From a virus (lineage: Duplodnaviria > Caudoviricetes), in the IMG/VR virus record IMGVR_UViG_3300027741_000085, positions 1 to 54,249 of that record: a stretch of 54,249 nucleotides of DNA; one strand, written 5' to 3'. The translations under genes and the position numbers were made by a program. The notes beneath the pieces were generated by a model. It searched no databases, had not been told where the DNA came from, and was given only the letters and a program-made list of their open reading frames with translations. Shown here piece by piece: positions 7,426 through 54,249 of the stretch (position 1 is its first letter; each line of letters starts with the position of its first letter).

Positions 7426-7429
7426 CGCC

Positions 7430-10321: not shown

Positions 10322-10343
10322 CCTACCACCCGTTAGCATAATG
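10310..10343 (-). mobile_element. attI-like terminal site of array B
   Basis: 33 of 34 bp identical to 36066-36099; no hairpin; minus strand reads ...GGCTAATCACT-GTT. Confidence 0.6.
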
Positions 10344-10363
10344 GTTTTCCGTTGTAATATTGC

Positions 10364-12396: not shown

Positions 12397-12413
12397 GGTA
12401 ACAAATGAGCGGT

Positions 12414-12728
12414 TTAACCCCAATCATCATCTGCGGGCGGGCCATCATCGTGGCCGCCGCTTTTGTCTTGTCGTTTTTGGACAACATCGAAAAGCTTCAC
12501 CCGCGCGGAACTGCTGCCCTTGTCCGCCATGGCTTTAGCGAGCATAAAAAGGGCGGGATGGAGAATGTCCAAATTGAACTTCAACTCGAGCCACTTGTTC
12601 CCATCGTTGTTGTTTTCGTGCTCCAGTAAAACACCGATGTCTCGGTATTCGACGGTAGGTTTGTCCTTTCCTTGCTGCTGGTAGGAACCGACGGGAAGAC
12701 AGGCGCGTTTAATGATGCGGGTGCTCAT
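12414..12728 (-). CDS. Putative ssDNA-binding protein
   Basis: Beta-rich, with YRDIGVL and an acidic C-terminal tail DDDWG. Confidence 0.5.
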   Translation of the reverse strand: MSTRIIKRACLPVGSYQQQGKDKPTVEYRDIGVLLEHENNNDGNKWLELKFNLDILHPALFMLAKAMADKGSSSARVKLFDVVQKRQDKSGGHDDGPPADDDWG

Positions 12729-13667: not shown

Positions 13668-13711
13668 AGAAACGTATTGTCAACTAATTATCAATGTGCA
13701 AGACTTCGCCC

Positions 13712-24343: not shown

Positions 24344-24826
24344 ATGACGACTCCCACTATCACCTACGTCCTTGAGTGTCCTGATGCCCGTGTGAACGAT
24401 CCCGTCGAAGGGAAAAGCGGCAAGGTGTATGGGGTCTATTTGAGGGATGCGGTAACCAGCGTTCCTACGCTGCGGATGACAGCGGCACAGTTTGAGGAAG
24501 CGAGGAAAGATTTGTTTGGTTATCAGCGCAGGCATAACCACATCATCCCACGGGTCGAGATTGAAGGAAGTGAGCCTGAGAAGAAGGCTCCTAAAGAACC
24601 TGATCAGAAAAAGGAAAAGGAAGAACCAAAGCGTTCACACAAGAAAAAAACTTTACCGGAAGTTCCAAAATCACAGGATGGAGAAGCGGCATCTCACCAG
24701 TCTCATAATCTGGAGAACGAGGGTTCAAATCCCTCTCCTGTAACCCCTCCTCCTGCTGCCGCGCCGGCGCCAGCATCTTCTGCACCCTTAAAAACAACGC
24801 CTGACGGGAAGGTGAAGAAATACTGA
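24344..24826 (+). CDS. Hypothetical protein with a low-complexity C-terminus
   Basis: ATG at 24344; Lys/Glu/Pro-rich tail. Confidence 0.6.
   Translation: MTTPTITYVLECPDARVNDPVEGKSGKVYGVYLRDAVTSVPTLRMTAAQFEEARKDLFGYQRRHNHIIPRVEIEGSEPEKKAPKEPDQKKEKEEPKRSHKKKTLPEVPKSQDGEAASHQSHNLENEGSNPSPVTPPPAAAPAPASSAPLKTTPDGKVKKY
24672..24743 (+). tRNA. tRNA-Met(CAT), initiator-like cloverleaf, inside a CDS
   Basis: Acceptor CACAGGA/TCCTGTA with C1:A72 mismatch; D stem GAGA/TCTC; anticodon loop CTCATAA; T arm GAGGG-TTCAAAT-CCCTC; followed by CCC rather than CCA. Confidence 0.75.
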
Positions 24827-27158: not shown

Positions 27159-27925
27159 GTGACGGCTATTCGAGTGTAGAAGCCTGGCGACAAGCGGAGC
27201 AAGCGCCTTTTTTCATGGCCCCGAATCAGCGCCAAAAAGGCTTTGGTTCGCGGGTGTTTTTGCAAGCACAGACGCCGCAGGATGAATACCCCTTGGATGG
27301 GTGGGGTAACCCAGGCATTCCGGGTAAAGATGGCGTGTCAAGCAGTGGTGTGGATGGACTACCCGGAAAAGACGGAGTAGACGGAGCAGACGGGACGCCT
27401 TCCACGGTAGCAGGTCCAATGGGTCCACCGGGTTTAGCAGGCGCAAACGGAGCCGATGGCAACCCTTCTACGGTAGCTGGCCCCCCTGGAGATGCTGGTT
27501 CTCCAGGAACTCCTGGGAATCCATCAACAGTGCCGGGACCGCCCGGACCGCCCGGACCACCGGGAGCTCCTGGAAGTGATGGCGGACCCCCAGGCCCCCC
27601 AGGTTCACCTGGAGGCCCAGGAAGTGACGGAAGTCCTGGCGGCGCTGGTAGCCCAGGAAGTCCTGGCGGCGCTGGTAGCCCGGGAAGTCCCGGAGCGCCC
27701 GGAATAGACGGCACGGATGGAAGAGACGGCACGGATGGAAGAGACGGTGTAGGTGTGCCTTCCGGTGGCCATACCGGCCAAGTTTTACGCAAACTTGATG
27801 AATCTCCTTACACATCCGTTTGGGATGAATTGGGTAAAACTATCAACGTGGCAGTGCTCGCCAACGATGGGGTTACAACCATTATTCTACATTTTACCAA
27901 CGGCCTTTTAACCTCAACCTCATAA
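27155..27925 (+). CDS. Collagen-like fibre protein
   Basis: Long interrupted Gly-X-Y repeats, including GPP runs. Confidence 0.9.
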   Translation: MSDGYSSVEAWRQAEQAPFFMAPNQRQKGFGSRVFLQAQTPQDEYPLDGWGNPGIPGKDGVSSSGVDGLPGKDGVDGADGTPSTVAGPMGPPGLAGANGADGNPSTVAGPPGDAGSPGTPGNPSTVPGPPGPPGPPGAPGSDGGPPGPPGSPGGPGSDGSPGGAGSPGSPGGAGSPGSPGAPGIDGTDGRDGTDGRDGVGVPSGGHTGQVLRKLDESPYTSVWDELGKTINVAVLANDGVTTIILHFTNGLLTSTS

Positions 27926-28670: not shown

Positions 28671-31600
28671 ACGACGGTGAACACCCCATCTTTGCAAATG
28701 GGGGCTGCACAGGAGAATCCAAATGCTGCATTGCAGGATAAAGCTATTCGTGGTATAGATGAGGCACTCTATGGAGACTCCCGCAAAGAAAATCAGCAAC
28801 GGAGGCGTGGTCACACCGGAAACGATGCCCGATCTTTTAGCCGCGCCGCGCTCCAAGACGAACGCCGAAATAAGGGCGCAGGCGGAGCGCGCGAGGAGCT
28901 GGCGCGCGACACAGGCGCAACGCGAAGAGAAGAAGCCGCTCGTCTCGTAGATTACGCACGGGATAACGGCTTCCTCATTGAGAAGATGCCGGAGCAATGG
29001 AAGCCCTACGCCGAGGGTGATGTGGGCGGACAAGAGCACCATGTGTGGATTCCAGAACAAGGAGCGCGGGTTATCAAGCTTACAACGCTGAGCAAACGCG
29101 GTGCCGACATTTTTGGTATGAACCCTGTGCCCTATCAAGGGAAGTGGGACTTGGACACGAAGGGAGCGACCGCTTACCGCTATCTTCAGCGTCTCGAAGA
29201 CGGAAACCAGACTTTCGGGGATGATCACATTGTGCATGGTGTCTGGAATGATCGTGGAGATGTCCACCTTCTTACGAGTCAGCGGGCCTATGATGGGGAA
29301 CTGCCTAGCAATCTTCCCGAGGGACTCGCAGCAGCCGAAGAAGCGGCGGAGAGCGACCGACGCACGCAAGATGTTGCCGAGGCGTTTGCTAAACAAGGCT
29401 TTGTCGCTCTAGATAACCGCACCTATTACCGTCCTTCCGACAATACAGCCGTCTTTGATGCCCACTTAGCAAACGTCATGTGGGTTACTGGAAAAAGCGG
29501 AGTGCGTCGCCTAGTTCCCTTTGATGTCACGACCATGCATCCCGTGGGCAAGCTCAAGGAGAATTTAGCTCAAGCAGCGCAGGCTGTTGCCGAACCCCAA
29601 CGTCTCTACATGGCCGCCGCACAAGCTGCGGATGAACTCGCCCGTATCAATCGCGAAGCTGGCGCCGCCCGCGTGATCAAGGATGAACTTGAGGAAAAGG
29701 GCCAGCCGGCGAAGCAAATGACCGGAGTGAAGGAGTCGGCAGCCGCCGCTCTGCGTGGCATCTTTGCTGGGAAGTTTGATAAGATGGAAGCCGCCGCCCG
29801 TGGTCTTGGTGACTTGGTGCGCGGGAATGACATTGAACAGCACTTCTCGGAAGCCGCGCTCAATGACTACATGGATAAGGTGCGCCAGTCGGTAAAGGAA
29901 AGCTTCGGCTCGCCTTCCTACTGGCATAACCGACAGAACCGGAAACGTCTCCAGCGCTTCAGTGATACCTTGCTGCCTGTCGCGGCGCGCTTGAATGCCA
30001 CGGGGATTGATCCAACGGGCTTCACGTTCTCCGACTTCGACATGCGCGTGGGCACGATCTTTGAAAGTGACCTCAAGAAAATGAACGCTAAGCCGGGTGA
30101 CATGATCCCGTGGAAGGGCGCGAGTGGCATGATGGAAATGCTCAAGGTAGGGCCGCTCATCATGGACCAAGGCGTGAACGCCCGTAGTTCCAAGAATGGG
30201 CGTTATACCCTGCTCCGCCACATGGCTGCGGATACTCAACAGATCATCTATGACCACTTCAAACAAGAATTCCCTGAAGGCGCGGCGTGGTTAGATCAAT
30301 GGATTGATCCCCTGCTACGGGATGCCACGCAGACGGGGCCGGGTAATGTGCAAGTGCCTGTGTTCAATCGCCACGCGCTGCTCAAGAGTTTTAATGACTG
30401 GTCGCCAGAACTGAAAGCGCTCTTTGGTAGTGAACCCCTGCCAGGCATCACCGGAATGGAAGGCTACACCCCGGACGTGATGGCGCAGAAGGGGCTGATT
30501 AACAGCATCGGTGCTGCCTTGAACGGCAATAGTTACCTGAATCGATTCATGTCCAGCGCTCGCAAATTCAAAGCGGGTGACTTACGCGAAGAGGGCAACG
30601 TCAAGAACCTTTTCGACGGCTTTACGCAGCGGGCCATGGAATCGCATCGTGAGAAGATTCGCCTCAAGACACGGCGCGACATCATTCAGAAAGCCGCCCG
30701 GCCAGCGAACAAGGTTCAACCGGAAGACTTGCGCTCTGGCTTGTTCATTCCCCTCGATGACACGTTCAAGAAGCTTTATGAGGCGCATGTGATCGCCTCT
30801 GGCCTTGATCGTGCGAAGTTCCCCGTGCTCACGCAATCTCTCAATCCTGACCAGAAGAGCGCCTTGCAAAAGCTCTTTGCTGATATGTATCAGCTCTATG
30901 GGAACGGCATGGTGATTCATCGCGATATTCACCGCCAGCTTGTGCTGGGTGCCGCCATGACCCAGACAGAGAATAGCCTCACTAAAGCGCTGTCATGGAT
31001 CATTGGACGACGTAACCGTAACGTTTTAGTAGAGTTGGGCACGTATGCCAATAATTGGAGAGGTAACTTTGTGCTGCAACCCGTGGAACTTATGAACCGG
31101 GTGAACCTTGCGATTGTGAACGGATTGACGGCTCCGTTCAGTAGCAAGGCCAAGGATGAAGGTGAACTAGCCGCTCGCCAAGTAGCTGAGCTCTTCAAGG
31201 GCTTCTTTGCTGATCGCCGTATCTTCGACCTCTGGACACTGAATAACGGTTTAGGGGCGGGGATTGGGAAGATTCGTCCATTTGTGCCGCAAGAAGTCTT
31301 TGGCGACGGTAGCAATCTTAGATATGACGAGGATTTTCGAGACAAAAGCGTGCTCGGTCATTTGAAAAACCTCGACGTAGGCGCGGCGTTCCTGCAAGGC
31401 ATCCGCTACGGGAACATCGATACACATCCAAAGATGAGTAACACGTATCGGCTTCTCCGGGCAGAAGCGGCGCATGTGGCCGCCCGTCAGAAGATTCCCA
31501 ACGCCAAGCGTGAAGCCTTCATCAATGATTGGATGCTGAACGCTCATAAGGATAATCCCCTTGCCTTCCTGCGAGCGTTCAAGGCTAGTCAATCCCGGTT

Positions 31601-33047
31601 CATGGACTATGAGAACGTCCCTTCGTGGATGGACCCTACGCAGTCGGCTTTGCCCCTGAATGCTAGTGACAACGCTCGTCATTGGGAAAAACTGCTAAAA
31701 AGCGCCACGTTCCCGTTCATCCGCTGGAACTACAACATGATGCGTCAAGTCTATCATCAGAGCTTTGGCGCGCTCATCAATGCCACGCAAGGCGCGCAAG
31801 AGGGCGACTGGAGCAAGGTGCGTTCTGAAGTGGCAAACCTCATGACGACGGCGGCTCTAACGGGTGTGGCTTCCTATCTTATTGGTGGTGGCGGTGGGGA
31901 TGATGACAAGGAGCTTTCTCTAGGCACAAATCAAGATGCTGAAGGTAAGTATCTGCCTAAACAACTGCGCAGTGGTAGCCGATTGAATTGGGCCTCTATT
32001 ATGCGTAGGCTTACGGGTAAGCCAGCTACAGATGACTATAGCGTTGAAGGTTTAGATCATAGTGCGAATGATTTATGGTATCGCTACAAACAAGACCCAT
32101 GGTTGCCTCAAGCCATCATCCTCGGTTTGCTTGCTCGAGGCCGTGCCGATGAAGCTTACAAAGCGGCTGGCGATCTGGGCACCGATTACTTTTTAAGTTT
32201 TGGTGTGATTGGGAATACTATTCCAGGTCTGCGCGCTGTTCTAAATCCTTATACGGCGGATCAGAACTATAGTTATGCAGCAACAGGCACCGCTATTGAT
32301 TTGGCCATCTCGCCGCTTGTGCCAACTCGGTTGATTCAACACATCAGTAAGATTATCGACCCTGTGACCCGACAGGAAGCACCGCGTGTGTTGCCTCGCA
32401 GTGAGGGCAAGACCAAGAAAGGCTGGGAGGATTATCAGCCTGGACCACTCGAAGCATTGAAGATGCGTATTCCAGGCATGAGCAAAGACTTGCCTGCTGC
32501 TGGCACTCTTACACAGGGGGAAGCGGGGAACTTTGATCCTGAAGCATGGTTACGCAATAAGACCAGCACGCTACGCACCCAGCTTAATAAAGGACTGATC
32601 ACGAAAGAGCAGTTCCGCCAAGCCGCCGGCGATGCCGTCAACCAAGCCAAGGAACTTGCCGCCAACAAGCTGAGCCCTCCCCAAGTAGAGAAGCTCTATG
32701 CCGACATGGGCATTAATCAGACTCCCGATGATAAAAAGCGGGTGAGCGGCGTTCCCATGATTCCTGAACTGCGCACGCTTCAGGATCTCGGCGTAGGCAA
32801 GGAGAGCGTGAGAACCTACGTCAGCAAAGATAGCAAAGGCCGTGATGTAACCAAAATTACCGCGCCAAGCCCTGATACAATAACTGTCGCCGATCCGCGC
32901 TTAGAAATCCTTAAAGCACTTACAGGAATTAACGTATCTTTGATCCCCACAGGGCGCGTGAAAGCTGCCGTTCAAAAAGGCGATTTCTACAAGACCCCGT
33001 GGAAACCTAAGCAGGCGTTGACGGGTAAGGATTGGTTCAAGAAGTAA
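28536..33047 (+). CDS. Giant polyvalent virion protein: N-terminal intein C-fragment, PolyVal-type kinase and large C-terminal region
   Basis: CVCIEV...YITDDGIVTHN/T at residues 1-46; GGQEH.VW...RVIK...DAHLANV...PFD kinase-like motifs; C-terminal region paralogous to the 4450-aa protein. Confidence 0.8.
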   Translation: MKTLDHLDWQQIISIEPDGEDECVCIEVTHPSKCYITDDGIVTHNTTVNTPSLQMGAAQENPNAALQDKAIRGIDEALYGDSRKENQQRRRGHTGNDARSFSRAALQDERRNKGAGGAREELARDTGATRREEAARLVDYARDNGFLIEKMPEQWKPYAEGDVGGQEHHVWIPEQGARVIKLTTLSKRGADIFGMNPVPYQGKWDLDTKGATAYRYLQRLEDGNQTFGDDHIVHGVWNDRGDVHLLTSQRAYDGELPSNLPEGLAAAEEAAESDRRTQDVAEAFAKQGFVALDNRTYYRPSDNTAVFDAHLANVMWVTGKSGVRRLVPFDVTTMHPVGKLKENLAQAAQAVAEPQRLYMAAAQAADELARINREAGAARVIKDELEEKGQPAKQMTGVKESAAAALRGIFAGKFDKMEAAARGLGDLVRGNDIEQHFSEAALNDYMDKVRQSVKESFGSPSYWHNRQNRKRLQRFSDTLLPVAARLNATGIDPTGFTFSDFDMRVGTIFESDLKKMNAKPGDMIPWKGASGMMEMLKVGPLIMDQGVNARSSKNGRYTLLRHMAADTQQIIYDHFKQEFPEGAAWLDQWIDPLLRDATQTGPGNVQVPVFNRHALLKSFNDWSPELKALFGSEPLPGITGMEGYTPDVMAQKGLINSIGAALNGNSYLNRFMSSARKFKAGDLREEGNVKNLFDGFTQRAMESHREKIRLKTRRDIIQKAARPANKVQPEDLRSGLFIPLDDTFKKLYEAHVIASGLDRAKFPVLTQSLNPDQKSALQKLFADMYQLYGNGMVIHRDIHRQLVLGAAMTQTENSLTKALSWIIGRRNRNVLVELGTYANNWRGNFVLQPVELMNRVNLAIVNGLTAPFSSKAKDEGELAARQVAELFKGFFADRRIFDLWTLNNGLGAGIGKIRPFVPQEVFGDGSNLRYDEDFRDKSVLGHLKNLDVGAAFLQGIRYGNIDTHPKMSNTYRLLRAEAAHVAARQKIPNAKREAFINDWMLNAHKDNPLAFLRAFKASQSRFMDYENVPSWMDPTQSALPLNASDNARHWEKLLKSATFPFIRWNYNMMRQVYHQSFGALINATQGAQEGDWSKVRSEVANLMTTAALTGVASYLIGGGGGDDDKELSLGTNQDAEGKYLPKQLRSGSRLNWASIMRRLTGKPATDDYSVEGLDHSANDLWYRYKQDPWLPQAIILGLLARGRADEAYKAAGDLGTDYFLSFGVIGNTIPGLRAVLNPYTADQNYSYAATGTAIDLAISPLVPTRLIQHISKIIDPVTRQEAPRVLPRSEGKTKKGWEDYQPGPLEALKMRIPGMSKDLPAAGTLTQGEAGNFDPEAWLRNKTSTLRTQLNKGLITKEQFRQAAGDAVNQAKELAANKLSPPQVEKLYADMGINQTPDDKKRVSGVPMIPELRTLQDLGVGKESVRTYVSKDSKGRDVTKITAPSPDTITVADPRLEILKALTGINVSLIPTGRVKAAVQKGDFYKTPWKPKQALTGKDWFKK

Positions 33048-33076
33048 ATAAAAGCTACGCCGTGCGGTGGCGTGCT

Positions 33077-33268
33077 GTTAGCAAATCTGTTAGCAGATCT
33101 CTCATTTTGCGCCTGCCTACCCTTTAAAAAGGGTGGCGGAATCGACGGGACTCGAACCCGCAACCTCACTCCTAAGTAAAATAGGTAGCGGTAAAGCCTT
33201 TATTTACTAGGGTTAGCTGACGTGACGTGATGGAAAACTCTTGACGTTCGTTAGCAAATCTGTTAGCA
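33077..33268 (-). other. attP: 3' half of tRNA-Asp (33134-33167) flanked by integrase arm-type repeats
   Basis: Minus strand GAGGTTGCGGGTTCGAGTCCCGTCGATTCCGCCA; 19-bp direct repeat GTTAGCAAATCTGTTAGCA at 33077 and 33250. Confidence 0.8.
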
Positions 33269-33349
33269 TGGCTTGCCCTCAATTCTCCCCAAAGAATCAC
33301 GTTTCAAATCAGGAACGATGCTTATGTTTGATCTAAAAATCTAACGCTT

Positions 33350-34559: not shown

Positions 34560-34945
34560 TTAGGAACGTTCGCATCAGCGATGGCGGAAGTCCCTGCTCT
34601 GTTGACCAGCAGCAGGCTTGTTCGGCTTGTGTGCTGATTCACGATCTGCATTTGCGACTGAGCGCCTTGGAGGCGGCCCATCACCGTCTTGTGTGGAAGG
34701 TGGCAGAAGCGACCAAATGGGAACCGCAAGGCTGCGATGACCAGCCAGTGGGAATAGCTGAATCGTTCTGCCAAAACTGTCGGACGTGCCACTATCCGCT
34801 GTCCGGCTGCCCTGGTGATGGCGGCCCTACGGGACCAGAACCAAATGGAGCAGATGGGCCTGTCGGAATGCCTGGCCCGCGTGGACCAAATGCAGACGGA
34901 GCGCCTAGAGAAACGGAAGAAGAGCACAGGCAACGCCTGAGCTGA
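34556..34945 (+). CDS. Cassette-like gene with Cys motifs and a short Gly-X-Y segment
   Basis: ATGA coupling; spans degenerate attC C1; stops inside attC C2. Confidence 0.55.
   Translation: MIRNVRISDGGSPCSVDQQQACSACVLIHDLHLRLSALEAAHHRLVWKVAEATKWEPQGCDDQPVGIAESFCQNCRTCHYPLSGCPGDGGPTGPEPNGADGPVGMPGPRGPNADGAPRETEEEHRQRLS
34561..34626 (+). mobile_element. Degenerate or chimeric attC-like site C1
   Basis: GAAC-gttcgc-atcagc left arm; short hairpin cctgctctg/cagCagcagg followed by GTTCGGC; the outer arms do not match. Confidence 0.45.
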
Positions 34946-34992
34946 GGCACACAGCCTTGCGGGCTGTGTTGGCCTCCGGCGCTGTGTTCCCC
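34928..34992 (+). mobile_element. attC-like site C2
   Basis: AAC-gcctga-gctgaggcacacagcc...ggctgtgttggcctcCggc-gctgt-GTTCCCC. Confidence 0.85.
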
Positions 34993-35033
34993 TGCGTTCC
35001 GACTGACCTACAAAAGATTTCTAAAAATATCGC

Positions 35034-35063
35034 TTGCGCATCTACGGCAATGCCGTATTATAT
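35034..35063 (+). promoter_or_regulatory. Cassette-internal promoter with a palindromic operator
   Basis: TTGCGC...TATTAT, with TACGGCAATGCCGTA (35043-35057) in the spacer. Confidence 0.6.
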
Positions 35064-35097
35064 AAGGCAGTCAGAAACCAACAAACTAAGCGAAAAT

Positions 35098-35304
35098 ATG
35101 AACACAGTCACACTCCACGTATTCACCAACGAAGCAGACATCGAAGCCGACTCTGATAAAGACACCGCTTTTACGCGGTGGAACGAAAACTTCAGCGATC
35201 CTTACACGCGCTATTTCACGATAGCCATTGAGGTTCCTGCTGTGGTGTCGCAAGCAAAAATTGTGCTACCAGTTGAGCCTACTCCAAGCGTCACCTTCGC
35301 ATGA
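35098..35304 (+). CDS. Cassette gene, small acidic protein
   Basis: ATG after the promoter; coupled to the HTH gene. Confidence 0.65.
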   Translation: MNTVTLHVFTNEADIEADSDKDTAFTRWNENFSDPYTRYFTIAIEVPAVVSQAKIVLPVEPTPSVTFA

Positions 35305-35534
35305 TTTTTGCTCAACAACTCCGAGCCGCCGCTGGCGACCTGACCGCACGGCAGGTCGCCTTTGCGGTGTCTCCGCTCCTGAGCGTCCGCACGGTAGAGG
35401 ACTGGCTCGCGGCCAGACGGACGCCACCGGACTGGACGCACGCATGGATTCTGAAAAACGTCGGAAGTCCAAAGAATCCCCGCAAGCGGGGGAACGTCGG
35501 CGGTGAGGCGACGGCGAGCGAGGCGCACCGCTGA
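35301..35534 (+). CDS. Cassette gene, XRE-like HTH protein
   Basis: LT.RQ.A....LLSVRTVEDW...RRTPP. Confidence 0.75.
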   Translation: MIFAQQLRAAAGDLTARQVAFAVSPLLSVRTVEDWLAARRTPPDWTHAWILKNVGSPKNPRKRGNVGGEATASEAHR

Positions 35535-35581
35535 CACGACAAAATTTTTACGAGCCGTTGCCTCCACTGCTCTTGTTAGAC
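35489..35581 (+). mobile_element. attC-like site C3 (same as B3)
   Basis: Identical to 10046-10134 from the AAC onward. Confidence 0.85.
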
Positions 35582-35597
35582 CCAACGAACCACAAAT

Positions 35598-35792
35598 ATG
35601 CACTCCTGCCCTGAATGCGGACAAGCCTGTTATTGCAATGGCGACATCGACGACATTGACGCAAACGCGATGGATGGACCACCGTTCTGCGAACACCCAT
35701 GTATTGAGCCAGAGGAAGATGATCGCTGTCCTGATGACCCACCAGAAGTGAAGTCTAACGGTCAGGGTCAGGCAACCTCCGAAGCGAAATGA
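35598..35792 (+). CDS. Cassette gene, small acidic Cys-rich protein (copy 2)
   Basis: Duplicate of 10151-10321 with a different C-terminal tail. Confidence 0.7.
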   Translation: MHSCPECGQACYCNGDIDDIDANAMDGPPFCEHPCIEPEEDDRCPDDPPEVKSNGQGQATSEAK

Positions 35793-35855
35793 AGACGAAG
35801 CTACCAGACAAGGCGCACCAAAGCGACGGGGGTTGCCTGCAACCTGTGGTTATGC
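35753..35855 (+). mobile_element. attC-like site C4
   Basis: GTCTAAC-ggtca-gggtcaggcaacc...ggttgcctgCaacc-tgtg-GTTATGC. Confidence 0.85.
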
Positions 35856-36067
35856 GACGGCTCTTCCTAGAGAAGGTGGCCGCAAAGGAAGCTGCTGCTG
35901 CTGCTGCCCGCACCGCCGCCATCCGCCGCAAGCAACTCGGCCCCATGCAGACAGAGGAGGGGATGCGCCATGACATCCAAGGCATCTTTGCTGATGGCGT
36001 CCACGCCCGAGGCGTCGGCTCTGCGGCAACCAAAATTCGCATCAAGGAACATGGGCAAGACGCATAA
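35789..36067 (+). CDS. Cassette gene, hypothetical protein
   Basis: Start lies in the C4 loop; the TAA overlaps the terminal AAC. Confidence 0.65.
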   Translation: MKTKLPDKAHQSDGGCLQPVVMRRLFLEKVAAKEAAAAAARTAAIRRKQLGPMQTEEGMRHDIQGIFADGVHARGVGSAATKIRIKEHGQDA

Positions 36068-36099
36068 CACTGATTAGCCTACCACCCGTTAGCATAATG
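36066..36099 (-). mobile_element. attI-like terminal site of array C, just upstream of int
   Basis: AACACTGATTAGCCTACCACCCGTTAGCATAATG; second copy at 10310. Confidence 0.6.
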
Positions 36100-36127
36100 C
36101 TACGCAACGTCATGCACCAATAACGTT

Positions 36128-37285
36128 ATGTTTACGCTGATTCCACGCGGGAAGAAAGGGTTGTTCTCGGCTGTTTGGTGGGAGAAGCAGCCGGATGGGA
36201 CGCTGAAACAGCAGTGGAAGGCTACGGGGACGAGTAATCGGAAGCTGGCTAAGGAGATGGCGGAGCTATGGGTGGAGGCTTCGCAGGAAAAGCGTATTTC
36301 GGAACGATTTAAACAACGCACTTTGGAACTGACTCGACGGCTTTCGGGGCGGTCGGGATCGTTGACGGTTCGGGATTGGTTCAAGAAATGGATTGAGGAA
36401 CGCACGCCCGAGGTGAGGCCTTCAACGCTGGCGTATTTCAAGGGGAAGACACAAGCGTTCATGGATTACCTGGAGTCGGTGAAGATGGCGGATGCGGATC
36501 TCGGAGCCATTGATGCGCGGCATATCCAGGGGTTCCGAGATGCGGACCTGAAGCGAGTGACGGCGGCCACGGTAAATCATTCCCTGAAGTGCTTACGGAT
36601 GGTGTTCAAGGCGGCGTGCGAGCGGGGCTTGATCATGGAAGATCCGACAAAGACGGTGAAGACGTTTAAGAAAAGCACGCAGGAACAAGAGGGCGATGAG
36701 ACGCGCCGCGCTTTCGAGGTGGCAGAACTTCAGGCCGTGCTCAAGGTGTGTAATGAGGAATGGCAAAGCCTCGTGATGTTTGGGGTTTACACGGGTCAGC
36801 GCCTCCATGACATCGCGAAGATGAAATGGAAGCAAGTGGATGTGGCTACGGGAATGATTCATTTTAAATCCAGTAAGACGCGCCGCATTGTGCGGTGTCC
36901 GCTCCCTGCGCCCTTGCATGACTGGCTCCTCACTCAGACGATGCCGGATGATGAGCGCGCGCCCGTGCATCCGCTGGCGTTCAAGGCTGGTTCAAGCACG
37001 TTGTCTGGGCAGTTCGGTGATATTTTAGCGGCGGCTGGACTGCGGAAAAAGATTCCCCGGACAGCCTCAAAAGATCGAGTGCTTACGGGCGACCGACGAA
37101 CCAAGAACGAACTCAGCTTCCATTCGTTGAGACATACCTATGTCACTTGGTTGAAGATGGCTGGCGCATCATCTGCCGTGGCCATGGACGCCGTGGGGCA
37201 TGATTCCGCTGGAATTAATGAGCATTACACGCATGTGGATGATGACACGAAAAAGCGCTTTGCGGACTTGCTGCCAAGATTGTGA
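36128..37285 (+). CDS. int: Phage tyrosine integrase
   Basis: TGQR, K, HSLRH and GH...HY catalytic residues; SAM-like core-binding domain; no IntI-specific insertion. Confidence 0.92.
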   Translation: MFTLIPRGKKGLFSAVWWEKQPDGTLKQQWKATGTSNRKLAKEMAELWVEASQEKRISERFKQRTLELTRRLSGRSGSLTVRDWFKKWIEERTPEVRPSTLAYFKGKTQAFMDYLESVKMADADLGAIDARHIQGFRDADLKRVTAATVNHSLKCLRMVFKAACERGLIMEDPTKTVKTFKKSTQEQEGDETRRAFEVAELQAVLKVCNEEWQSLVMFGVYTGQRLHDIAKMKWKQVDVATGMIHFKSSKTRRIVRCPLPAPLHDWLLTQTMPDDERAPVHPLAFKAGSSTLSGQFGDILAAAGLRKKIPRTASKDRVLTGDRRTKNELSFHSLRHTYVTWLKMAGASSAVAMDAVGHDSAGINEHYTHVDDDTKKRFADLLPRL

Positions 37286-39381: not shown

Positions 39382-42300
39382 ATGCCTAAAGCACCTCGGA
39401 CCCTGGATGATCTTGTCGCTAAAGACCCACTCTCGCAGGGGCTCAAGGCGTCACAACAGCACTCGCTGACGATTGGCGCTCCCCAGGCTGCCGCGCATTA
39501 CGAAAGGTTGGCTTCTCAACGAGCCTCGACGCTGGCGTCTAAGTTACCACCGCCCGCAGCGCCGCAGGCACCTAAAGAACCGACAGCGGCGCAACTGGTG
39601 CGCCAACAGAACGCGGCGACAAAGCAAGAGAACACGGCGACACGTCGGCAGTTCCAGAATGATGCGGTGGCATGGTTCACGACGGCAGAAGGTAAGCACA
39701 TCCCTATCACGGCACCCTCGGGCGGGCGACTGGTCAAAAAAGATCAGACGCCTTATTACTACGATGAAAAGACGGGGCAACCGTATCGCGTGATCGGTAA
39801 TAAAGCCGTGGGCGTAAATGAGCTTGGCGCAGTAAGCCGGAAGGCGAAGCCGGACGGGCTGGTGTATGAACACCTCGCCCAAACGAACTCGAGTAAAGAT
39901 GTGCCCGTGGATGTGAATGAGCAGAATCCACCGGGCATGAAGGAGTTTGAGCAAGGGCTCAAAGAAGATCAGGAGCAAGTGACAAAGGGCGTCGTTAGTG
40001 CAAACGCCAGCGTGACAGCTCACTCCAAAGCAGTCACCCAAGCCAAACAGGATCTGGCCGTCATGAACAAGATCGGCGCGGGAGATGATCCCGTTCATGC
40101 GGCGCTCGTGGAGAAGTATGGGCAAAATCCCGCTACGGAACACGATGAAAGTTCGGGTGAATACACCCCTACCGAACCCACGGACCCCGAAGAACTCGCA
40201 AAGAAAAGGCTGGGTGATATTTACACGCTCGCCAAAGAACAGAAAGCGCAAGCCATCATCGCTCTGAACACAGCGCAAGCGGCTAAGGATTCGTTCTTTG
40301 CAAAGAAAACTGAGCGACTCGCCACGGCGCGGGAAGGCTTCGCTTATGAAGCACGGGAACGCCTTCCCGGAACAGGGAGACTTGCGACTGCTGCCAATGA
40401 TCAGATTATCGGCGTGGTGCCACCGCCACCGCTGCCTGTAACGAAGGAAGATGCGCTGGACCCGGTGCGCGCCGCTGCACAAGCTGCTATCCGCACGGTG
40501 ACCGATGTGTCAGGGCTGAATCAGCGTGTGGATAAGGATGCGCTGCACTTTGATTTCCGTGGGATGCCAACACTTCCGCCGCTTCATATCAAAACGCCAA
40601 CATCGGCCACGGATTCAGCACCAGACAGCGAAATCGATACCGATACGGCCCCCGCTCCTGAAGCACCGATTGCCTATTCCACCTCCGTTCCTGACACCGC
40701 GCTTTTACCCAGAGCCGCTGAATTGCAAAGCTACGCAAAGGCCGCGGGTAAGACAGACTTCCATGCGACTCCCGGCTTGCAGATGCAGGACGACGGGAAA
40801 CTGATGGTGGACATGGAGCCACCAGCGCCCGCAGAAGAAGCGCCTGCGCCTTCCTACCCTGAGAAGCTGTTGAACATGGCGAACGATGCCGTAACAAAAG
40901 CGCAGATGGCCCCATTCGGAGCTGCCGCTGGTTATGTGCAGGACGGTATTAAGGCGCTTGGAGAGGGAATCACGAAAGCCTTTGACCCGAAAACTGGCAA
41001 GCCTTCGCTCGTGCCGACCGAACGCGGGCAACGGGTGTATGATCAATACGGCATTCCTTCGCTGGAAATGCATTGGCAGGGGTCCGAAAAGCCCGGTGCG
41101 CCTGTGTCCCCTAGCCTATTGGCGAACGATCCTTATCACGGATTGCCTGAGTATGCCGCCGCGCCGCGTGACTTGTTCCCTGCGCCTGATTCCCCTTCCC
41201 TGAAGGGGATGTCTGAAGAGGAGATTGCAAAAGCACGCGAAGACGTGACGAATCAATGGCGGGCAAATCGCTGGGAACCAACCAAGACAGCGGACTTCCT
41301 CACACGTTGGAAAGCGGGAGACGATGCCGCGCGCCGTGAGATGATGGCGGAAGTGGATTCACGCCAGAACGATCTTCGCCCTGAACTGCGCCGCTTGGAT
41401 ACCAAGATGCTCTGGGAGACGGGGCAAATCTCCAAGCAGGAAGCGCGCACTTTAGAAAACATCGAAACCCAACGCCTGCCCGGACTGCCAGACTTGGATA
41501 TGCAGTGGGCTGTGAAAGGCGATAAAAACGCCGATGGACCAGCACGGCAGAAGTTCATTGAGCAGTATCTTCGTGATAATCGCAACACCGTGGACTTTGA
41601 TGACGCCACGTTCACCGCGCAGCGGGACAAGCTGTTGGCGGGGGTGCCAAGTGACCTTATCAGCGATGCAGGGCAGTGGATGAAGAACACCACCGCCGGC
41701 GCATTGGGTAGCAGCCCTGGGATGTTGATTGATCAACCTGTGAACATCCTTGTCGCGGGTGCTCATGCCGTGGTCGGTGCCTTGCAAGGCAAGCCGCTGA
41801 GTGGTGGGCAGAAAGACTTGCTCGCCGAGGACAACAAGCGCATGGGCTTGATCGCTGGGCAAACGGGCGATTCCCTCTATAACATGTATGCGCAGACTCG
41901 CGAACGTCTGCGCACGTTGACGCCGGACGGCGTGAATCGATTTGATGAGATGCGTCAGGATCTCGCGGGCATTCTTGCGGATATTGACAACGGGAAGCGC
42001 CCCACGGAAGCCGAGTTCCAAGCCGTGCGAAACCGCATCGCGGACCGAGCCTTAGTCGTGAACGGGGTTGCTGACAAAAGCATCCCACAAGAGCGCGCCC
42101 GTGCTTACTACGACATTGGAAACTTAAACTCCCGTGTCGGTGGCATCTTCGCGCAATACAATGAGACTCGTGACCCGAATCTCAAAGACCAGATGATTAC
42201 GGAGTTGCTCGCCCATCCAGGCGAGATGCAGCGCCGAGATCAGGCTTCGCAATACGCTGACCCGACGATTGCAAAAGAAAGCTGGCTCCGAACCATCGGC

Positions 42301-45300
42301 GAGGCCGAAGAAGCGGATAAGCTGGCGCGGGATCGCTCGGGTTTCATTAATCAAATTACTTCCGGCTATCGCTCCGGCGGTGTGGCTCCATTGACTGAGA
42401 CTGCCGTGGAAATGGCGAGCGCTGGCTTGGAAGGCTGGTTTGCGAAGGCTGCGGAACGCGGGCTTGGGTTGGCTGAGAAAGCCACGATGGAGACAGGGCG
42501 CAAAATGGCCGCTGGTGAAGCCTTTGAACATTGGTGGGAAAAGCTGGGCATCAAACACGCCGCAGAAGATGCGCCGCTTACGCTCGGAGATAAAGCGCGT
42601 AACCTTGCGGTGAGTGCGGCTAAATCTGCGGGCGGGGTAAGCCTTACGGAAGGTGCGGAGGAAATCGTGGGTGGCTTTGGGCAGAAAGAGAATACGGACA
42701 AAGATATTGCGATGCAGGGCTTGGGCGGGGCTTTCGGTGGGCTTGCGCTTATGCCGTTCTTCCATGGGCAGCATTTAGTATCTACAGGAGTAGCTAGCGG
42801 GTTGAATGCCGCTAGCTCCTTCCTTGATAATCGCCGTCAAGTGCTTGCCGATAAAGCAGCGGTGGCGAAGATCGTCGAGACACACAATCGTCTCAATCCA
42901 AGTGACCCGATTGACTTCGACCTCGCGCAGCAGGCTCGTGCTTACCTGCCTTCTCATGAAGTGGTCACGGGTGCGATCAATGCCGCCACTCAGCAAATGA
43001 TGAATGCGGCGGCGCTGCCTGAAGGTCCAGTGAGAGATAAAGCTTTACAAAAAGCCAATGACCTCTGGCATAGCACGTTCAACTTTCAATTCCAGAACGA
43101 GCAAGCTGCGCTGAATGCAGCCAAGGAAATCAACGGCCTCAAAGACCAAGGGCCGGAAGGCGAAGCCCTGCGTAACGTGGCGGATGCTGCCTTGCGGGCA
43201 GTGCAGGACGGCACGCTGACGCCGGACCAATCAGGATGGCTCGCAAACTACCATCTCCCCACGGGTGAGAAGGCAGCTTACTATGCCGAGGGGACCGACA
43301 ACACGGCGCGGCTGAAGGAAATCAACCAGCGCATCACGGAGCTGGAGAAGCAACGCGATCAAGCAAAGCAGAAAAACAAGCTCTCCATCGGTGACTTCAC
43401 GGGCAAGCCGCAAACAATCAAATACGACGCCAGCCAGTGGAACGCCGCGAAAAGTGGCGAACTTGAGTCGCTCAAGAAAGAAGCAGAATCGTCAACTAAT
43501 GTTCCACATGGAACACCGGACAAAGGGCGCTGGATCTTCACGGATGCTTTCCGTAATGCCGTGGCGGAAGTCGCCCCGCAGACTGCGGCAGCGTTCTTTG
43601 ATCAGACCGAGAACCAGCAGCTTGACGCGCATCAACAATTAGTCAACAATGCCACGTCTGGAGCGCCGACAGATACTCAAGCTGCTAAAGCAGCTTCGAG
43701 GGCAGGCGCAACGCCTGGGACGGGCGCGAACTTCATGGGAGTGGAGGGCGTTCCGTCTCAGGCATCTTCTACTTCTGCGCCCTCAGCACCCCAATCTCCG
43801 GCTGCTAGGTCTTTGGTTGTTTCTCCTAGCAGTGGGGAAAACGTAGGAGTCAGTGCGCCGGAACGTGGTTCGGCGGCTGATGTTCGGGCTTCTGCGGTGG
43901 GGAATCCGGTTTCCTCCACTGGCTCCTACACCTTCCCACTGAGCTACACGAGCAAGGAAGGATTGGAGGTAAAGAACACGCCGACTATCAAAGCGGCATC
44001 CCTCAGTGAGGCGAAATCAAAGCAACAGTCTTACGTGGCAAAACTTGAGAAGGTAGGACACACGGACGTCGTGGCTGGTGAACTCTCGCCAGTAATGTCG
44101 AAGGCAACTGGTAAGCAAAGCTTACAAGTTCAAGAACAGGAACAGGAACAGCAGCCTTACATTGCTTTGGATTGGCCACAGCAAGCACAATCATGGAAGA
44201 TTGAGACGCTAAAGGATCTGCTGACGAATGTAGCCAGCACTTACGGCTACGCGCTCGCAGATACGGGTATTCCAACGGGGATGCATGACCGTTGGGGCAA
44301 GGCGCTACATTGGGGCACCAATCTTTACGACAAGCTTGGAGATCGTCCCCCTGGCATTTCCCCTCAAGCGGAAACCATAGGCCATTGGATTGATAACCTG
44401 AGCAACTCAGGAATGAAAAGGGAAATCCTTTCACGCATGAGTGAAGGGGTAAACGCGGGCAGTGTCACGGGCGGTTATCTGCATCGCGTGTGGTTCGGTC
44501 ATGATGCGCTTAGTAACATGGGCGACATAGTGAGCAAGTTCGGTGTTAGCTCTGTGCCTCACTACTTTATGGCGTTGTTCAAGGACAGCACCACAAAGAG
44601 CGGCATTCCTCTCCCTGGGGTGCAGATGCTCGTGCGCTCCGGTGCCGTGTCTGACAAGCTGGCGACGAAGTGGATGTCCGTGACCCTGCCCGGCATGTTC
44701 GGCGCTGGCATGGCCATCTATGGCACGCTCCGCCTTGCCCGAACGCTGGAAGGTGGAAAGCTCACGAAGACTAAGGCCGTGCTCGCCACGCTCGGCGTAG
44801 GCTTCAAGGTCATCGGTGGGGCCCTTCATGCGCAGCCGTTCCTTGTGCTTTCAGGGCTGGCAGATGCCGCGCTTTTGATTACGCACTTAGGTGACATCAA
44901 GCGCGTTTTTGCGGCTACCTCCAAAGAGGAATTGAATACTCACGCGGCAGAAGTGAAGCAGGAATTTAAGCAATCCAGTCAGAGTCAGCCTGTGGCAAAT
45001 GATAAAAAAAATGTTACATTAAAAGATGATCTTTATCCCAAAAACCATGAGCCGGGAAGAAGCTCTGAAAGCTCGGTTGAACACGTCCACGGGCAAGACC
45101 GTGGAGCAAGTGACACGCAGCGCGGACGAGCACCACTGGCAGACGGCGGAACCCAAGTATCTAATCGCGCCGGACAAGTTGCAGGAACCGAAACGCCATC
45201 AGCACTTTCAAGAGGTAATGACGGCACGCTTCAAGGGCAATCTACCGAAGGATCTCGGGAAGGGACCGCCGCCACCGGTGGCTTACCTGCCCTTAATTCT

Positions 45301-48300
45301 ACTGCCTTGGAACAGGGTGCGCCCCAAGAAGTAAACGCTGCAACTGACCAAGAAGAACAAATTCCAGAACCCGCAATTGATGAAGGGGGTGGGAAAGTCG
45401 TTCCAAGTCGCACAGCGCCTACGAACAATAAGGAAAACAGTGTTCCGGCAGTAAAGCGCAAGGACAAGATTAAACTGACACACAAGAACACGTTTGAGGC
45501 GCTCAAGGAGCATTTCCAACCGGGAGAGATTGTTAACGATTATCTCGGGAAGAGCCGGGTGATTTCATTTACTGGAACCAATGTGGCTGATTGGTCCGTC
45601 AAAGTTCAAGGCTTGACCAAAGAAGGTGAAGACCTACCCAATGATGTCCGCACTCACAGGACATTCCCCAGTGCCAAAGAATTACAAATAGCTCTGAACA
45701 AGCCGCCTTCAGAAAGCGAAGCCGTAGATCAGCGCGCCCCTACCAACGCCTCACCTGAAACAGTAAAGAGTGCGAAAGATGAAGCGTATCTGAAAGCCGC
45801 TCAAGCTGGAGACCTTACGACTGCGCAGGATATGGTGGATGCAGCAGCAAAAGAGGCTGGCTACAATATTCCTGTCTGGCATGGCTTGAACTATGGAGGG
45901 TCCAAAGAAATCGAAGGGCATTCTTTTGACTTTGAACGTGGACGTTATGGGAAAGGTGCTTGGGTTACGACTTCTGAAGAAGTGGGCAACCGTTACGGAC
46001 CTAAGAATAAGTTAAAGTTATTTCTTAAAGCGGATCGAGTTTTCACCCAAAAAGACTACGAACAGCTACCCGAAAATGATCCCATTAAGCAGGCGATTGC
46101 CCGCAACAACGCTAAGCCTGAGACGCTCTCCACAGTCATTGATTTCTCAGAAGCGGAACCTCTTTTAAAAGCAAGAGGCTATGATGCTGCTGCGCACACG
46201 CGCCCCGGTTCTATGGATGGTGCACCGTCAGACGCGCTGCACACAGCCTACTTTGTTTTTATTAGTCCATCTCAACTCAAATCTGCAGACCCTATCATCC
46301 GCGATGGATCTGGTAACATCATCCCACTGAGCGAACGCTTTGCCAGCGGACCGGGGGAGCGCCGTGAACAAGAGCTTACTGGCAATCCTATAAGCACTCT
46401 TGAAAAGCAATCTTTTTCGGGTTGGTCAATGGTTGATAAAAATGGCGGAAACAGTGGAAATAGTGCCTCGGATGTGGTTAAATTTGAGGATGTCCCCTCC
46501 CACTCCCTCACTGACCAACAGCGTGACAACCTTGCCGCCCTTGCGTCAATCTGGCGTCAAGACGCCGGCGCAACTGGAGAGACTGGAGCGTTCACATCGC
46601 GCCGCATATCGTCCGTTGCCGACGGACGAGGAAGATCCCTTGTTGAATTCACTCAGGCATTTGAAGCGGCTACAGGAAAGCGAATTGAATGGGTAGATAC
46701 CCCTGCTGAATTGCCACTTCCTTGGAAGGCGGCGGTGAGCCCTCAGCGAAGCAACACAATCTTTGTCCATTCCCGTGCTCCTGGGAATGTGCTAGCCCTG
46801 ATCGGGCATGAGTGGGGCCACACTTTGAAGTCGCAGAACCCTGCTCTCTATCGGGATCTGCAAACGGCACTAGCAAAGCAAGCCTCCCGTGAGGATGTTA
46901 AAGTGCTCCGTAGTGATTTATCAAAACATTACCGGCGGGACATTCTTAACACAGAGCTGACGAACAACGTCATTGGAGACTTCTTCACTGATCCTGAGTT
47001 CTGGAGGCAAGTAGGCAAAGAAGAGCCAAGTCTGCTGCACCGCGTGGTCCAAAGCCTTCAAGACTGGTTCACGGGACTTGTGGCCAAGGTGAAAAGTCAG
47101 TGGGGCATGGAGAAGTATGCGAAGAGCCTTGATGACGCCCGCCAAGAAGTTGTGGCAGCTTTCACCCAAGCAGTAAGAGAAGGGCCTTATTCAGAACTTT
47201 CTAACGTGAGTGATGATGAGCTTGTTCGCAGTGGTATAACGGAAACGGATTTGGCCGCGCATGATGCAGCCACGTCTCCGCACAATAATCTTCCTGAACC
47301 TACACAGGCTCAGAAAGAAGCGGGCAATTACAAGGTTGGACGCTTGCGGCTTGGAGGCATGAATATTTCTGTTGAGAATCCTGCTGGAAGCACTCGCAAG
47401 GGCACAGATGGTAAAGGTAAGCTGTGGTCCCGTGAGATGAAGAGTCACTATGGCTATTTCCGTGATACCCAATCACGCGATGGGGACCACATGGATGTCT
47501 TTGTCAAACCCGGCACTTCGGCAGATTACAATGGCCCCGCCTTCGTCGTAAACCAAATTGACCCTAAGACCGGGAAGTTTGATGAACACAAGACTATTCT
47601 TGGTGCTCAGACACCAGAAGAAGCCCGTGCTCTTTACCTAGACAATTACGATGCGACTGGACCGTCTCGCATCGGCAGCATCGCCCGTTTCAGCACGCTA
47701 GAGAATTTCAAAAAATGGGCTACAGAGAAGCAACGCATAGCTCCTGCAAAAGAAGGTATGGAGGCAAAGCGTTCGAGGCGCTTGAGCGACAACGCCGAGA
47801 TGCCGACTGCGGGGGTTAGTGAAACTAATAATCATGCAAAAGAACTCGCAAAACCAAACCTAGAGAGCTATTTTAACTATCATGGACTCCCATCCTCCGA
47901 ACACGCCGCCGCCGAATCTTCCATCAGAGGATCTTTTGCCGCCTCCCCTACCCCCTACGAAGAAACAGCCGCTCGAGTATCCTCCAACGGAGGAGTGGAT
48001 CGGGGAGCCGTCAGAAGCGCCCGAACACATCAAGCAGCAGTTTATCAAGGATTGATCAATGGAGACATTGAAGGAACGGCCAAGAGCATTTCCGATGGGG
48101 TTCCTTTGTCATCCCTCATGCCACAATTCATTGGTCGTGAGATTTCGGGCTTTGATATTCGCGGGGCAGTCATCAACTCGCCTAAGGAGCTAGCACTTCA
48201 TGCCTTAGCCCACCGCACACCATATTTCGAGTCGGTCAAAGTCGTCGTTGTGGACAAAGCCCATCAGGTCATTCACAGCCAAGTAGTGCATGTAGGCTCT

Positions 48301-53990: not shown

Positions 53991-54249
53991 ATGTGTTTGC
54001 ACCTTTCTTGTTTTTCACCTTTCAATCACAACGTCAAAACTAGTGAGGATGAAGGCAGTAGTGGCCACGCGCAGCCCCTTCGCTCTCATGTGCGGACACC
54101 CCACGGCTTGCGCACGATTGGCTCTCTCCGGTTGGGTGAAGACCTCTCCAGTCCTGATGGTGAGCCTTCACAGGTGAAAGGCATCTATCCGCAAGGAGTG
54201 CAAAAGGTCTATCGAGTCACCTTGGCAAATGGTAAAAGCACCCGTGTTA
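53991..54249 (+). CDS. Partial ORF: short leader then intein/Hint N-terminal region starting at Ala (54069), truncated by the window edge
   Basis: Manual translation ...GH/AQPLRSHVRTPHGLRTIGSLRLGEDLSSPDGEPSQVKGIYPQGVQKVYRVTLANGKSTRV. Confidence 0.75.
   Translation, partial: MCLHLSCFSPFNHNVKTSEDEGSSGHAQPLRSHVRTPHGLRTIGSLRLGEDLSSPDGEPSQVKGIYPQGVQKVYRVTLANGKSTRV

Follow-up and report, generated by a model that had tools for sequence, protein, structure and literature searches.

Integrons are known chiefly as bacterial stockpiles of resistance and defence genes, with cassettes driven from a promoter at the attI end of the array, and to our knowledge the phage integrons described so far look like captured pieces. 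The subject of this analysis is a 54,249-nt stretch of DNA (hereafter, the window), the whole of the IMG/VR virus record IMGVR_UViG_3300027741_000085 (Duplodnaviria; Caudoviricetes), which comes from a metagenome assembly, and in particular a 34-bp sequence (34-mer) that closes two arrays of cassette-like units within it, at positions 10310-10343 and 36066-36099. A preliminary description of this DNA, made from the sequence alone, had put the 34-mer forward as a candidate attI site. We consider it quite probable that it is the attI site of an integron belonging to the phage itself, an assignment that draws on the anatomy and polarity of the site, on cassette-exact differences between its copies and between samples, and on its conservation across a family of related phage loci.

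The attI sites of bacterial integrons (e.g. attI1 of class 1 integrons or attIA of Vibrio cholerae) are hairpin-free double-stranded sites at the integrase-proximal end of the array, with a GTT/AAC crossover, L and R boxes in inverted orientation separated by a few bases, an extra direct-repeat box on the integrase side, and a cognate copy placed just upstream of the intI start. The phage site shares all of these features. On the other hand, its sequence is unrelated to the bacterial ones beyond the crossover triplet and the TAA-type boxes; in the relatives of this phage the site extends up to the ATG of intI; the phage replicon carries three copies, two of them away from intI; and the phage cassette genes point toward the site, with no Pc-type promoter found. 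A different gene arrangement is known from the "reverse" integrons of Treponema and some other phyla, in which intI is inverted, attI lies after its 3' end and the cassettes follow downstream; intI shares its direction of transcription with the cassette genes, as it does in the phage. In contrast to these, the phage attI keeps the classical place in front of the intI start, and the reversal concerns the cassette genes, relative to the attC polarity.

Integron components have been reported in phage genomes. According to the accessible part of Qi et al. 2023 (PMC9892861), a survey of 10,705 phage genomes yielded 3 complete integrons and 1 In0, in addition to 17 attC clusters; most of these had been acquired from class 1 integrons or from integrons of host chromosomes. 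The present case resembles those in having intI, attI, attC and cassettes in a phage genome, and differs from what that part of the survey describes in that its integrase belongs to a clade represented in many IMG/VR phage contigs, the genes are reversed and the site is triplicated. Attachment sites off their canonical place, arising from unusual IntI reactions, are also described in the accessible text on the attI-remnant-bounded cassettes of mobile integrons (PMC12901181); these are truncated attI sites within resistance arrays, whereas the phage has full-length sites at the ends of separate operons. Our full-text search of the literature (main texts, as far as these were accessible) returned no phage-borne integron clade with reversed cassette genes or with several full attI sites. 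The integron chemistry is known; what appears to us to be new is the carrier, the orientation of the genes together with read-through, and a docking site present in triplicate.

These features bear on phage biology in several ways. The integrase-attI module recurs in many phage genomes, and in the present one the cassettes carry, among other genes, a PAPS reductase and a Lar-like anti-restriction gene. Expression appears to follow a reversed logic, in which cassettes would enter at the promoter-distal end and the junction is read through in frame. If active, the system would give phages site-specific swapping of accessory genes, and it would provide a new attI/IntI pair for study. The triplication of the site raises the questions of whether one integrase serves several docking sites per replicon and of what recombination between two attI sites would do to a phage genome.

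A 34-bp site without a hairpin between unlike neighbors

The window contains exactly two occurrences of the 29-nt core of the site, TGATTAGCCTACCACCCGTTAGCATAATG, one at 10315-10343 and the other at 36071-36099. Each is on the plus strand and free of mismatches, and no match arose in any of 100 dinucleotide-preserving shuffles. With the five preceding bases included, the two 34-mers (AACAGTG... at 10310-10343 and AACACTG... at 36066-36099) differ at a single position, and the recurrence noted in the preliminary description is thus beyond chance. The left flanks are unlike (...GTGAAGTCT at copy 1 and ...GACGCAT at copy 2), and so are the right ones: copy 1 is followed by open reading frame (ORF) 82 (10364-10612) and then by the terminase, and copy 2 by a phage-type tyrosine integrase (36128-37285) that starts 28 nt downstream, in agreement with the earlier observation of different genes after the two copies. 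The companion statement, that different cassettes precede them, holds for the adjoining unit but fails for the next one, as the second-to-last unit at copy 2 (B') is a repeat of the unit abutting copy 1 (B).

The 34-mer has no fold of its own on either strand (DNA minimum free energy of -0.1 to -0.9 kcal/mol), with 125-132 of 200 shuffles folding equally well. The site was correctly described as a non-hairpin one (-0.1 kcal/mol, z = +0.7, with shuffles folding as well), and this fits the expectation for a double-stranded attI. A search for degenerate further copies in the window returned only the two known ones, and exact searches with the 29-mer in IMG/VR and with a 24-mer in GTDB species genomes gave no match. 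The search of phages that had been proposed as a check was accordingly negative for the exact sequence in IMG/VR; it was positive for a homologous site upstream of intI in IMG/VR relatives (see below).

The units adjoining the site are cassettes

The units on the left of the 34-mer follow one plan, which in gene orientation reads AAC|G, a hairpin with the ATG of the gene in its loop, GTTNNNN, the gene, and a closing NNNNAAC. The GTTNNNN of each unit is the exact reverse complement of the closing 7-mer of that same unit (its "own box"), the end of every unit is the AAC of the next one, and a G follows the AAC in every unit. The own-box match is 7/7 in seven distinct units (D, C, B, H, A, F and G, with B' being the repeat of B) and in one more minus-strand unit; in the unit 628-257 it is only 5/7. 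At copy 1 the array consists, on the plus strand, of cassette D (9447-9769, 323 nt; attC-like hairpin 9441-9542; own box GTTCGGC/GCCGAAC; a 106-aa ORF at 9486-9806), cassette C (9770-10047, 278 nt; hairpin 9764-9855 with a z-score of -4.3; own box GTTCGGT/ACCGAAC) and cassette B (10048-10311, 264 nt; own box GTTAGAC/GTCTAAC), the 56-aa Cys-rich ORF of which (10151-10321) ends as NSD* inside the 34-mer. The array at copy 2, likewise on the plus strand, comprises cassette H (34934-35494, 561 nt; hairpin 34928-34992; own box GTTCCCC/GGGGAAC; two small ORFs), cassette B' (35495-35758, 264 nt) and cassette A (35759-36067, 309 nt; hairpin 35753-35855; own box GTTATGC/GCATAAC; a 92-aa ORF at 35789-36067). 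A third array, on the minus strand at the left end of the window, includes cassette F (3-256; hairpin 263-170, homologous to that of A, with the same own box GTTATGC/GCATAAC) and a cassette-like unit at 629-953 (hairpin 959-830, z -4.2; own box GTTCTGT/ACAGAAC).

Two of the cassette proteins could be assigned: the ORF of cassette C (9788-10087) encodes a Lar-like restriction-alleviation protein (phrog_599, E 3e-5), and the cargo of cassette G (contig L004, 156-1019; see below) is a PAPS reductase (phrog_424, E 5e-31). No family match was obtained for the remaining cassette proteins.

To chain units in an automated way, a search was started from each of the three 34-mers of the 57,045-bp circle described below, and it recovered 3, 3 and 1 units. 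Among 400 control starts drawn at random from the 1742 AAC triplets of the circle, 375 yielded no unit at all, and chains of one, two and three units were obtained from 22, 2 and 1 of them, respectively. A generic scan of the circle for AAC, hairpin and GTT plus own box proved too noisy (88 matches against 19-38 in shuffles), and the chain test was used instead. When folded with their own box restored, the hairpins have a terminal stem of 8 bp, then a small internal loop, another stem and a variable top, with one bulged C on the 3' arm in the folds of D, C, B and A; in array form their z-scores range from -0.7 to -4.3. The arms have undergone at least one compensatory change (TCAGGCGAC/GTTGCCTGC versus TGAGGCGAC/GTTGCCTCC). 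According to the accessible part of Bouvier et al. 2009 (PMC2727003), the attC bottom strand is distinguished by A/C cleavage in the R' box, by a G after the AAC, by a central spacer that stays unpaired and by extrahelical bases in the R''-L'' arm. Of the features given there, the phage units display the R stem, the unpaired spacer, a bulged base on the 3' arm and the G after the AAC. The own-box pairs, the hairpins and the AAC chains together bear out the earlier suggestion that these units are cassettes.

Polarity and cassette-exact variation

The own-box match by itself fits a crossover either at the AAC left of the hairpin or at the GTT right of it. The choice between the two is provided by differences between arrays. 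Cassettes B and B' differ by 2 mismatches in 265 nt, and their identity runs from the AAC before the hairpin to their own closing AAC, stopping at these two boundaries. B abuts the 34-mer at copy 1, whereas at copy 2, and only there, the 309-nt cassette A is found between B' and the 34-mer. In contigs of another freshwater sample (Logan contigs, X2), the end of A at 36068 is joined at the AAC to a different attC-like start rather than to the 34-mer; the same sample also contains the right flank of copy 1. A contig from a third sample (X3) spans 36001-36420 and bridges A, the 34-mer and the phage integrase gene as in the window. The uncovered parts in X2 and X3 are uninformative, and a high contig depth at 35869-36019 is due to a GCT-rich stretch. 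A joint skipping 309 nt (X1) was discarded as independent evidence, being the copy-1 locus aligned onto copy 2.

Taken together, the limits of the B/B' repeat, the presence or absence of A and the X2 variant indicate that the mobile unit is the hairpin plus the gene that follows it. The canonical reading, which places the crossover at the GTT to the right of the hairpin and gives the genes their usual orientation, passed the own-box test equally well. It was rejected because the stretch common to B and B' takes in the hairpin before the gene and nothing after the gene, because no hairpin accompanies the 34-mer that follows the last unit, and because A is found both with and without a following hairpin. 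With a mobile unit of hairpin plus gene, the plus strand of the window is the bottom strand and attI is expected on the right of the last unit, which is the position of the 34-mer; it directly follows the AA|C of the last cassette in all three arrays. The prediction that the site lies on the side where the attC polarity places attI is hence confirmed by the B/B' identity, the indel of A and the X2 variant. As the two window copies differ by exactly one cassette, at least one cassette-exact event must have occurred at one of them after the copies arose.

Anatomy of the site

On the minus strand the site reads CATTATGCTAAC-GGGTGGTA-GGCTAAT-CA(C/G)T-G|TT. The L box GGCTAA and the R box TTAGAC (formed with the first cassette at copy 1) are inverted repeats 6 nt apart, and a further box, GCTAAC, is located 16 nt upstream in direct orientation. 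The only base that varies between the window copies falls in the spacer, which is variable across the family too, and both copies are otherwise intact (34/34 and 33/34). Inverted core boxes around the crossover, combined with the lack of a hairpin, are what would be expected of an attI. The suggested similarity to the L-spacer-R layout of attI1 was also upheld: GGCTAA, 6 nt and TTAGAC in the phage compare with CCCTAA, a 7-nt spacer and TAGGC-type inverted boxes in attI1 oligonucleotides, as given in the accessible part of PMC2811028. On the other hand, the proposed link between the site and the attP arm repeats through a shared GTTAGCA did not hold, with 8 occurrences against 5.1 expected (a count reached in 12 of 100 shuffles) and with mostly GTTCGY at this place in relatives; we take the sharing of this motif as chance.

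The 34-mer also carries signals of translation. On the plus strand its beginning, AAC AGT GAT TAG, reads NSD* and ends the last cassette gene at copies 1 and 3, so that at copy 1 the site, from its crossover AAC (the first 3 nt), gives the ORF of cassette B a TAG stop. The ATG at the very end of the site opens an ORF of 6-8 codons in all three copies, which overlaps the start of ORF82 or intI, or stops 4 nt before the phage integrase gene. In the window these are 8-codon mini-ORFs at 10341-10367, with a stop overlapping the start of ORF82 (ATGA), and at 36097-36123, ending 4 nt before the integrase ATG, both on the plus strand.

A third copy adjoins an integron-integrase-like gene

A scan of metagenome contigs revealed a third 34-mer outside the window, on two short contigs, L003 and L004, that connect to the window and to each other by 127-nt overlaps of 100% identity (L004 1-127 equals the reverse complement of window 1-127; L003 1919-2045 equals the reverse complement of window 54123-54249; L004 1006-1132 equals L003 1-127). 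Joined together, the two contigs and the window form a closed circle of 57,045 bp. The third copy is inverted relative to the two window copies and ends a leftward string of early genes, the last units before it being F (window 256-3, minus strand) and then G, an 885-nt PAPS-reductase cassette with its own box GGGGAAC abutting the site. The window contig begins 1 nt past the boundary of cassette F and L003 begins 2 nt before the third 34-mer; the assembly may break where the cassette content varies.

A gene for a 334-aa recombinase starts 14 nt after the third site. Its best NCBIfam match is TIGR02249, "integron integrase" (2-314 of 315 model positions, 256.4 bits, E 4e-76; cut-off 265), and its alignment with VchIntIA (PDB 2a3v; E 7e-41) is free of gaps across the extra domain specific to IntI. 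The catalytic residues R142, K170, H270, R273, H296 and Y305 are invariant in 26 homologues. In contrast, the phage-type tyrosine integrase next to copy 2 (36128-37285, plus strand) is not an IntI (31 bits with TIGR02249) and is unrelated to the IntI-like protein beyond the catalytic core. An intI-like gene adjoins the third copy, on L003, and the two window copies, followed by ORF82 and by the phage-type integrase, are orphans. The preliminary designation of an attI candidate is in this respect supported for the third copy, directly upstream of an integron-integrase-like gene, and not for the window copies, which lie away from it. The involvement of a host IntI, which had also been considered, is not borne out, as the relevant IntI-like gene is encoded by the phage, next to the third copy.

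A family of related phage integrases and sites

Homologues of the IntI-like protein with 55-77% identity are common in metagenomes, and several of them are named integron integrase by JGI. A search with a 26-sequence alignment found relatives encoded in 130 of 161 candidate IMG/VR viral-contig stretches; viral contigs searched with the phage Int or the IntI-like protein as a single query returned no relatives, and only the alignment gave matches. Upstream of intI, each of the 43 loci that were read (41-60% identity) has a box ending in AAC, accompanied in nearly all of them by a conserved A-N-K-GATTA..C block and, in most, 8-20 nt further, by a GTT(C/A)G.ATA.. block abutting the intI ATG. An alignment of 25 such sites, all adjoining intI, has the same layout (RYYYAAC, A-N-K-GATTA.., GTT(C/A)G.ATA.., intI ATG) with an invariant AAC. 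From this family-wide layout we deduce that the 34-mer is this phage's version of the family site, and that the intI start codon of the relatives has its counterpart in the ATG closing the 34-mer.

At least one cassette could be chained from the AAC of the site in 35 of 41 related loci (58 cassettes in total; random-AAC controls gave 5, 2 and 6), a sample that includes near-identical pairs. For 51 cassettes of up to 1500 nt, from 39 loci, the longest open frame reads the AAC as a codon toward intI in 45 cases, a count biased by the TAA or TGA contained in many of the boxes; a plain comparison of strands by longest open frame in the relatives is weak (34 versus 17), as GC-rich DNA would lead one to expect. 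No second copy of the site was found within 6 kb on either side of intI in the 41 loci. Seven whole related records (G001-G007) are phage genomes of 46-75 kb, six of them at least 91% complete and three with terminal repeats, and a single site was found in all seven, which makes the three copies in one genome unusual. A portal protein related to that of the window was found in only one of five relatives tested; since the portals are mostly unrelated, the integrase-attI module appears to be common to otherwise different phages. In genome contigs, the best matches listed for the same alignment had 42% (an Opitutaceae metagenome-assembled genome) and 37% identity (an Akkermansiaceae one), and neither a host nor a bacterial equivalent of the site emerged among them.

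Reversed gene orientation and predicted expression

The cassette genes (e.g. those for PAPS reductase and the Lar-like protein) point toward attI, which is not the orientation of classical integrons. Within the arrays they have no stop codon of their own; the frame runs through the AAC junction (an Asn codon) and stops in the next hairpin, often in an ATGA that overlaps the start codon coming next. A consensus scan for sigma-70-like promoters found none in 9800-10800 and none in 35400-36400, and the terminator-like matches (one and three, respectively, in the same two regions) do not fall at the site. From these sequence features the cassettes would be expressed as distal members of the operon to which they dock. 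Copy 1 closes a rightward string of small early genes (2849-10321), and copy 2 a long rightward structural operon with a tail of small genes (13694-36067). The earlier claim that cassettes are added at the promoter-distal end, with their genes toward attI, extends to the relatives (45 of 51 boundaries). In classical integrons, according to the accessible parts of PMC5027507 and PMC2727003, cassettes are expressed by the Pc logic, and the direction predicted for the phage cassettes is the opposite one.

Proposed mechanism and alternative explanations

A mechanism consistent with these data can be outlined as follows. The minus strand of the 34-mer would provide an accessory box (TGCTAAC), an L box (GGCTAAT), a short spacer and the crossover G|TT, with the R box completed by the first bases of the adjoining cassette. 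The phage-encoded IntI would bind this double-stranded site and recombine it with the folded bottom strand (the window plus strand) of the attC of a circular cassette, so that new cassettes would enter between the last cassette and the 34-mer. On the circle of ~57 kb, one copy would sit beside intI and two as orphans, each at the 3' end of a string of co-oriented genes (two divergent early operons and the late structural operon), and the orphan copies are predicted to be active as docking sites. Cassette genes would be read through the AAC (Asn) and reach their stop in the attC that follows or in the 34-mer (NSD*), with the ATG of the 34-mer restarting a mini-ORF of 6-8 codons abutting the downstream gene, possibly by translational coupling.

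Several observations weigh against this interpretation. The intI gene is outside the window, and the link to it consists of 127-nt overlaps with contigs of other records, where branch points of the graph could hide other paths. The recombinase score of 256 bits is 9 under the curated TIGR02249 cut-off of 265. The automatic chain at the third copy ended after one unit and its start is unlike the manual reading; F and G have weak hairpins when folded in array form (z of -1.3 and -0.7); and the bulged base is C, where attC usually has G or T. Some redundancy (the near-identical pairs) affects the chain test in the relatives, all seven whole related records have just one site, so that the orphan copies might be accidental, and the sharp right-hand limit of the 34-mer, after the ATG, is not accounted for by IntI chemistry.

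The last two of these points, together with the mini-ORF that the terminal ATG opens in all three copies, overlapping or abutting the start of the next gene, would be explained if the window copies were relics of the true attI beside intI, left by rearrangement, no longer recombined, and retained for their stop codon and restart ATG. We regard this as unlikely, since the orphan copies differ by exactly one cassette (A), which implies a cassette-exact insertion or excision after the copies arose, and since both have stayed intact with a lone difference in the family-variable spacer. It is less likely still, at a rather small probability, that the 34-mer is a promoter, operator or terminator signal before three genes, its proximity to cassettes being secondary. 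A start codon does follow 14-28 nt after each of the three copies, the 34-mer contains a CATAAT hexamer, and in relatives the intI ATG is at the very end of the site, so that binding of IntI could regulate intI. However, neither of the two regions scanned has a sigma-70-like promoter, no terminator-like match falls at the site, and the site has no hairpin; moreover, a signal would leave unexplained the AAC junction, the inverted L/R boxes and the cassette-exact indel, and a regulatory role would be compatible with attI function rather than replace it.

The fact that the window copies are direct repeats bounding 25.7 kb, with an integrase gene 28 nt from one of them and with GTTAGCA occurring four times in an attP-like region (33077-33268), could be read as attL and attR cores of an element integrated by the phage tyrosine integrase (36128-37285). 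This is highly improbable: the segment between the repeats does not include that integrase, a better attP candidate is available at 33048-33349 (a tRNA/tmRNA-like 3' fragment with 19-nt arm repeats), the third copy is inverted and beside intI, the site is kept beside intI in phages of which only one in five tested shares the portal of the window, and the GTTAGCA count is not above chance. We give hardly any credence to an ordinary duplication or an assembly artefact, which the metagenomic origin of the record and the 271-nt repeat of 99% identity accompanying the 34-mer might suggest. The three copies have three different left and three different right flanks with sharp limits, contigs of other samples bridge the junctions (X3 at 36001-36420; X2 at the right flank of copy 1), the site is conserved across the family, and the 271-nt repeat corresponds exactly to a single cassette that two arrays have in common, so that the possibility raised in the preliminary description, of a mere leftover of duplication, does not stand.

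Beyond the assignment of the 34-mer as a phage attI, a broader scheme may be entertained, albeit as a doubtful one. Phages might own a "backwards" class of integron, whose cassettes, lacking both promoter and stop codon, would dock at the distal ends of operons and depend on read-through and restart for their expression. With three sites in this phage, one and the same accessory or anti-defence gene could come under either early or late control, whole modules could be moved or merged by recombination between sites, and the 25.7-kb packaging and structural block could represent a giant attI-bounded unit derived from an attI x attI co-integration.

Other features of the window

The packaging and structural genes include those for the large (10564-12423) and small (13068-13667) terminase subunits, both on the minus strand, an SU10-type portal (13694-15784), a major head protein (22791-24275) and a 1503-aa tail-like protein (29761-33021), and a 4450-aa ORF occupies 39382-52734. 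ORF82 (plus strand), downstream of copy 1, belongs to a family with no assigned function (phrog_11184) and is convergent with the gene of the large terminase subunit.

The attP-like intergenic region at 33048-33349 contains, on the minus strand, a 34-nt piece resembling a tRNA/tmRNA 3' end (33134-33167; a weak match to the tmRNA model, E 0.025), located between two 19-nt direct repeats (33077-33095 and 33250-33268). Contigs from three freshwater runs match only this 34-nt piece (with 3 mismatches) and continue as an Asp-like tRNA gene. A 25/28-nt match between 33016-33043 (the last codons of the 1503-aa gene) and 36360-36387 (codons ~78-87 of the phage integrase) looks like a scar of an old rearrangement beside the attP-like region. 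The 1503-aa gene (29761-33021) is also similar to the C-terminal part of the 4450-aa ORF (49349-52699; ~70% nucleotide identity over ~2.8 kb), and the two are probably paralogous receptor-binding modules.

Two recurrent motifs are candidate phage promoters or translation signals: TTGTCAACTAAT, upstream of the portal gene and of genes after the phage integrase (13677-13703, 37286-37312, 38241-38267 and 39347-39373), and AATTAGTCAACCAT, upstream of early-gene starts (~3460, ~4146, ~5867 and ~8601). The structural operon includes a tRNA-Met (CAT) gene at 24671-24746, and a 256-aa gene of the structural region carries collagen-like 27-nt tandem repeats coding for Gly-X-Y at 27560-27688.

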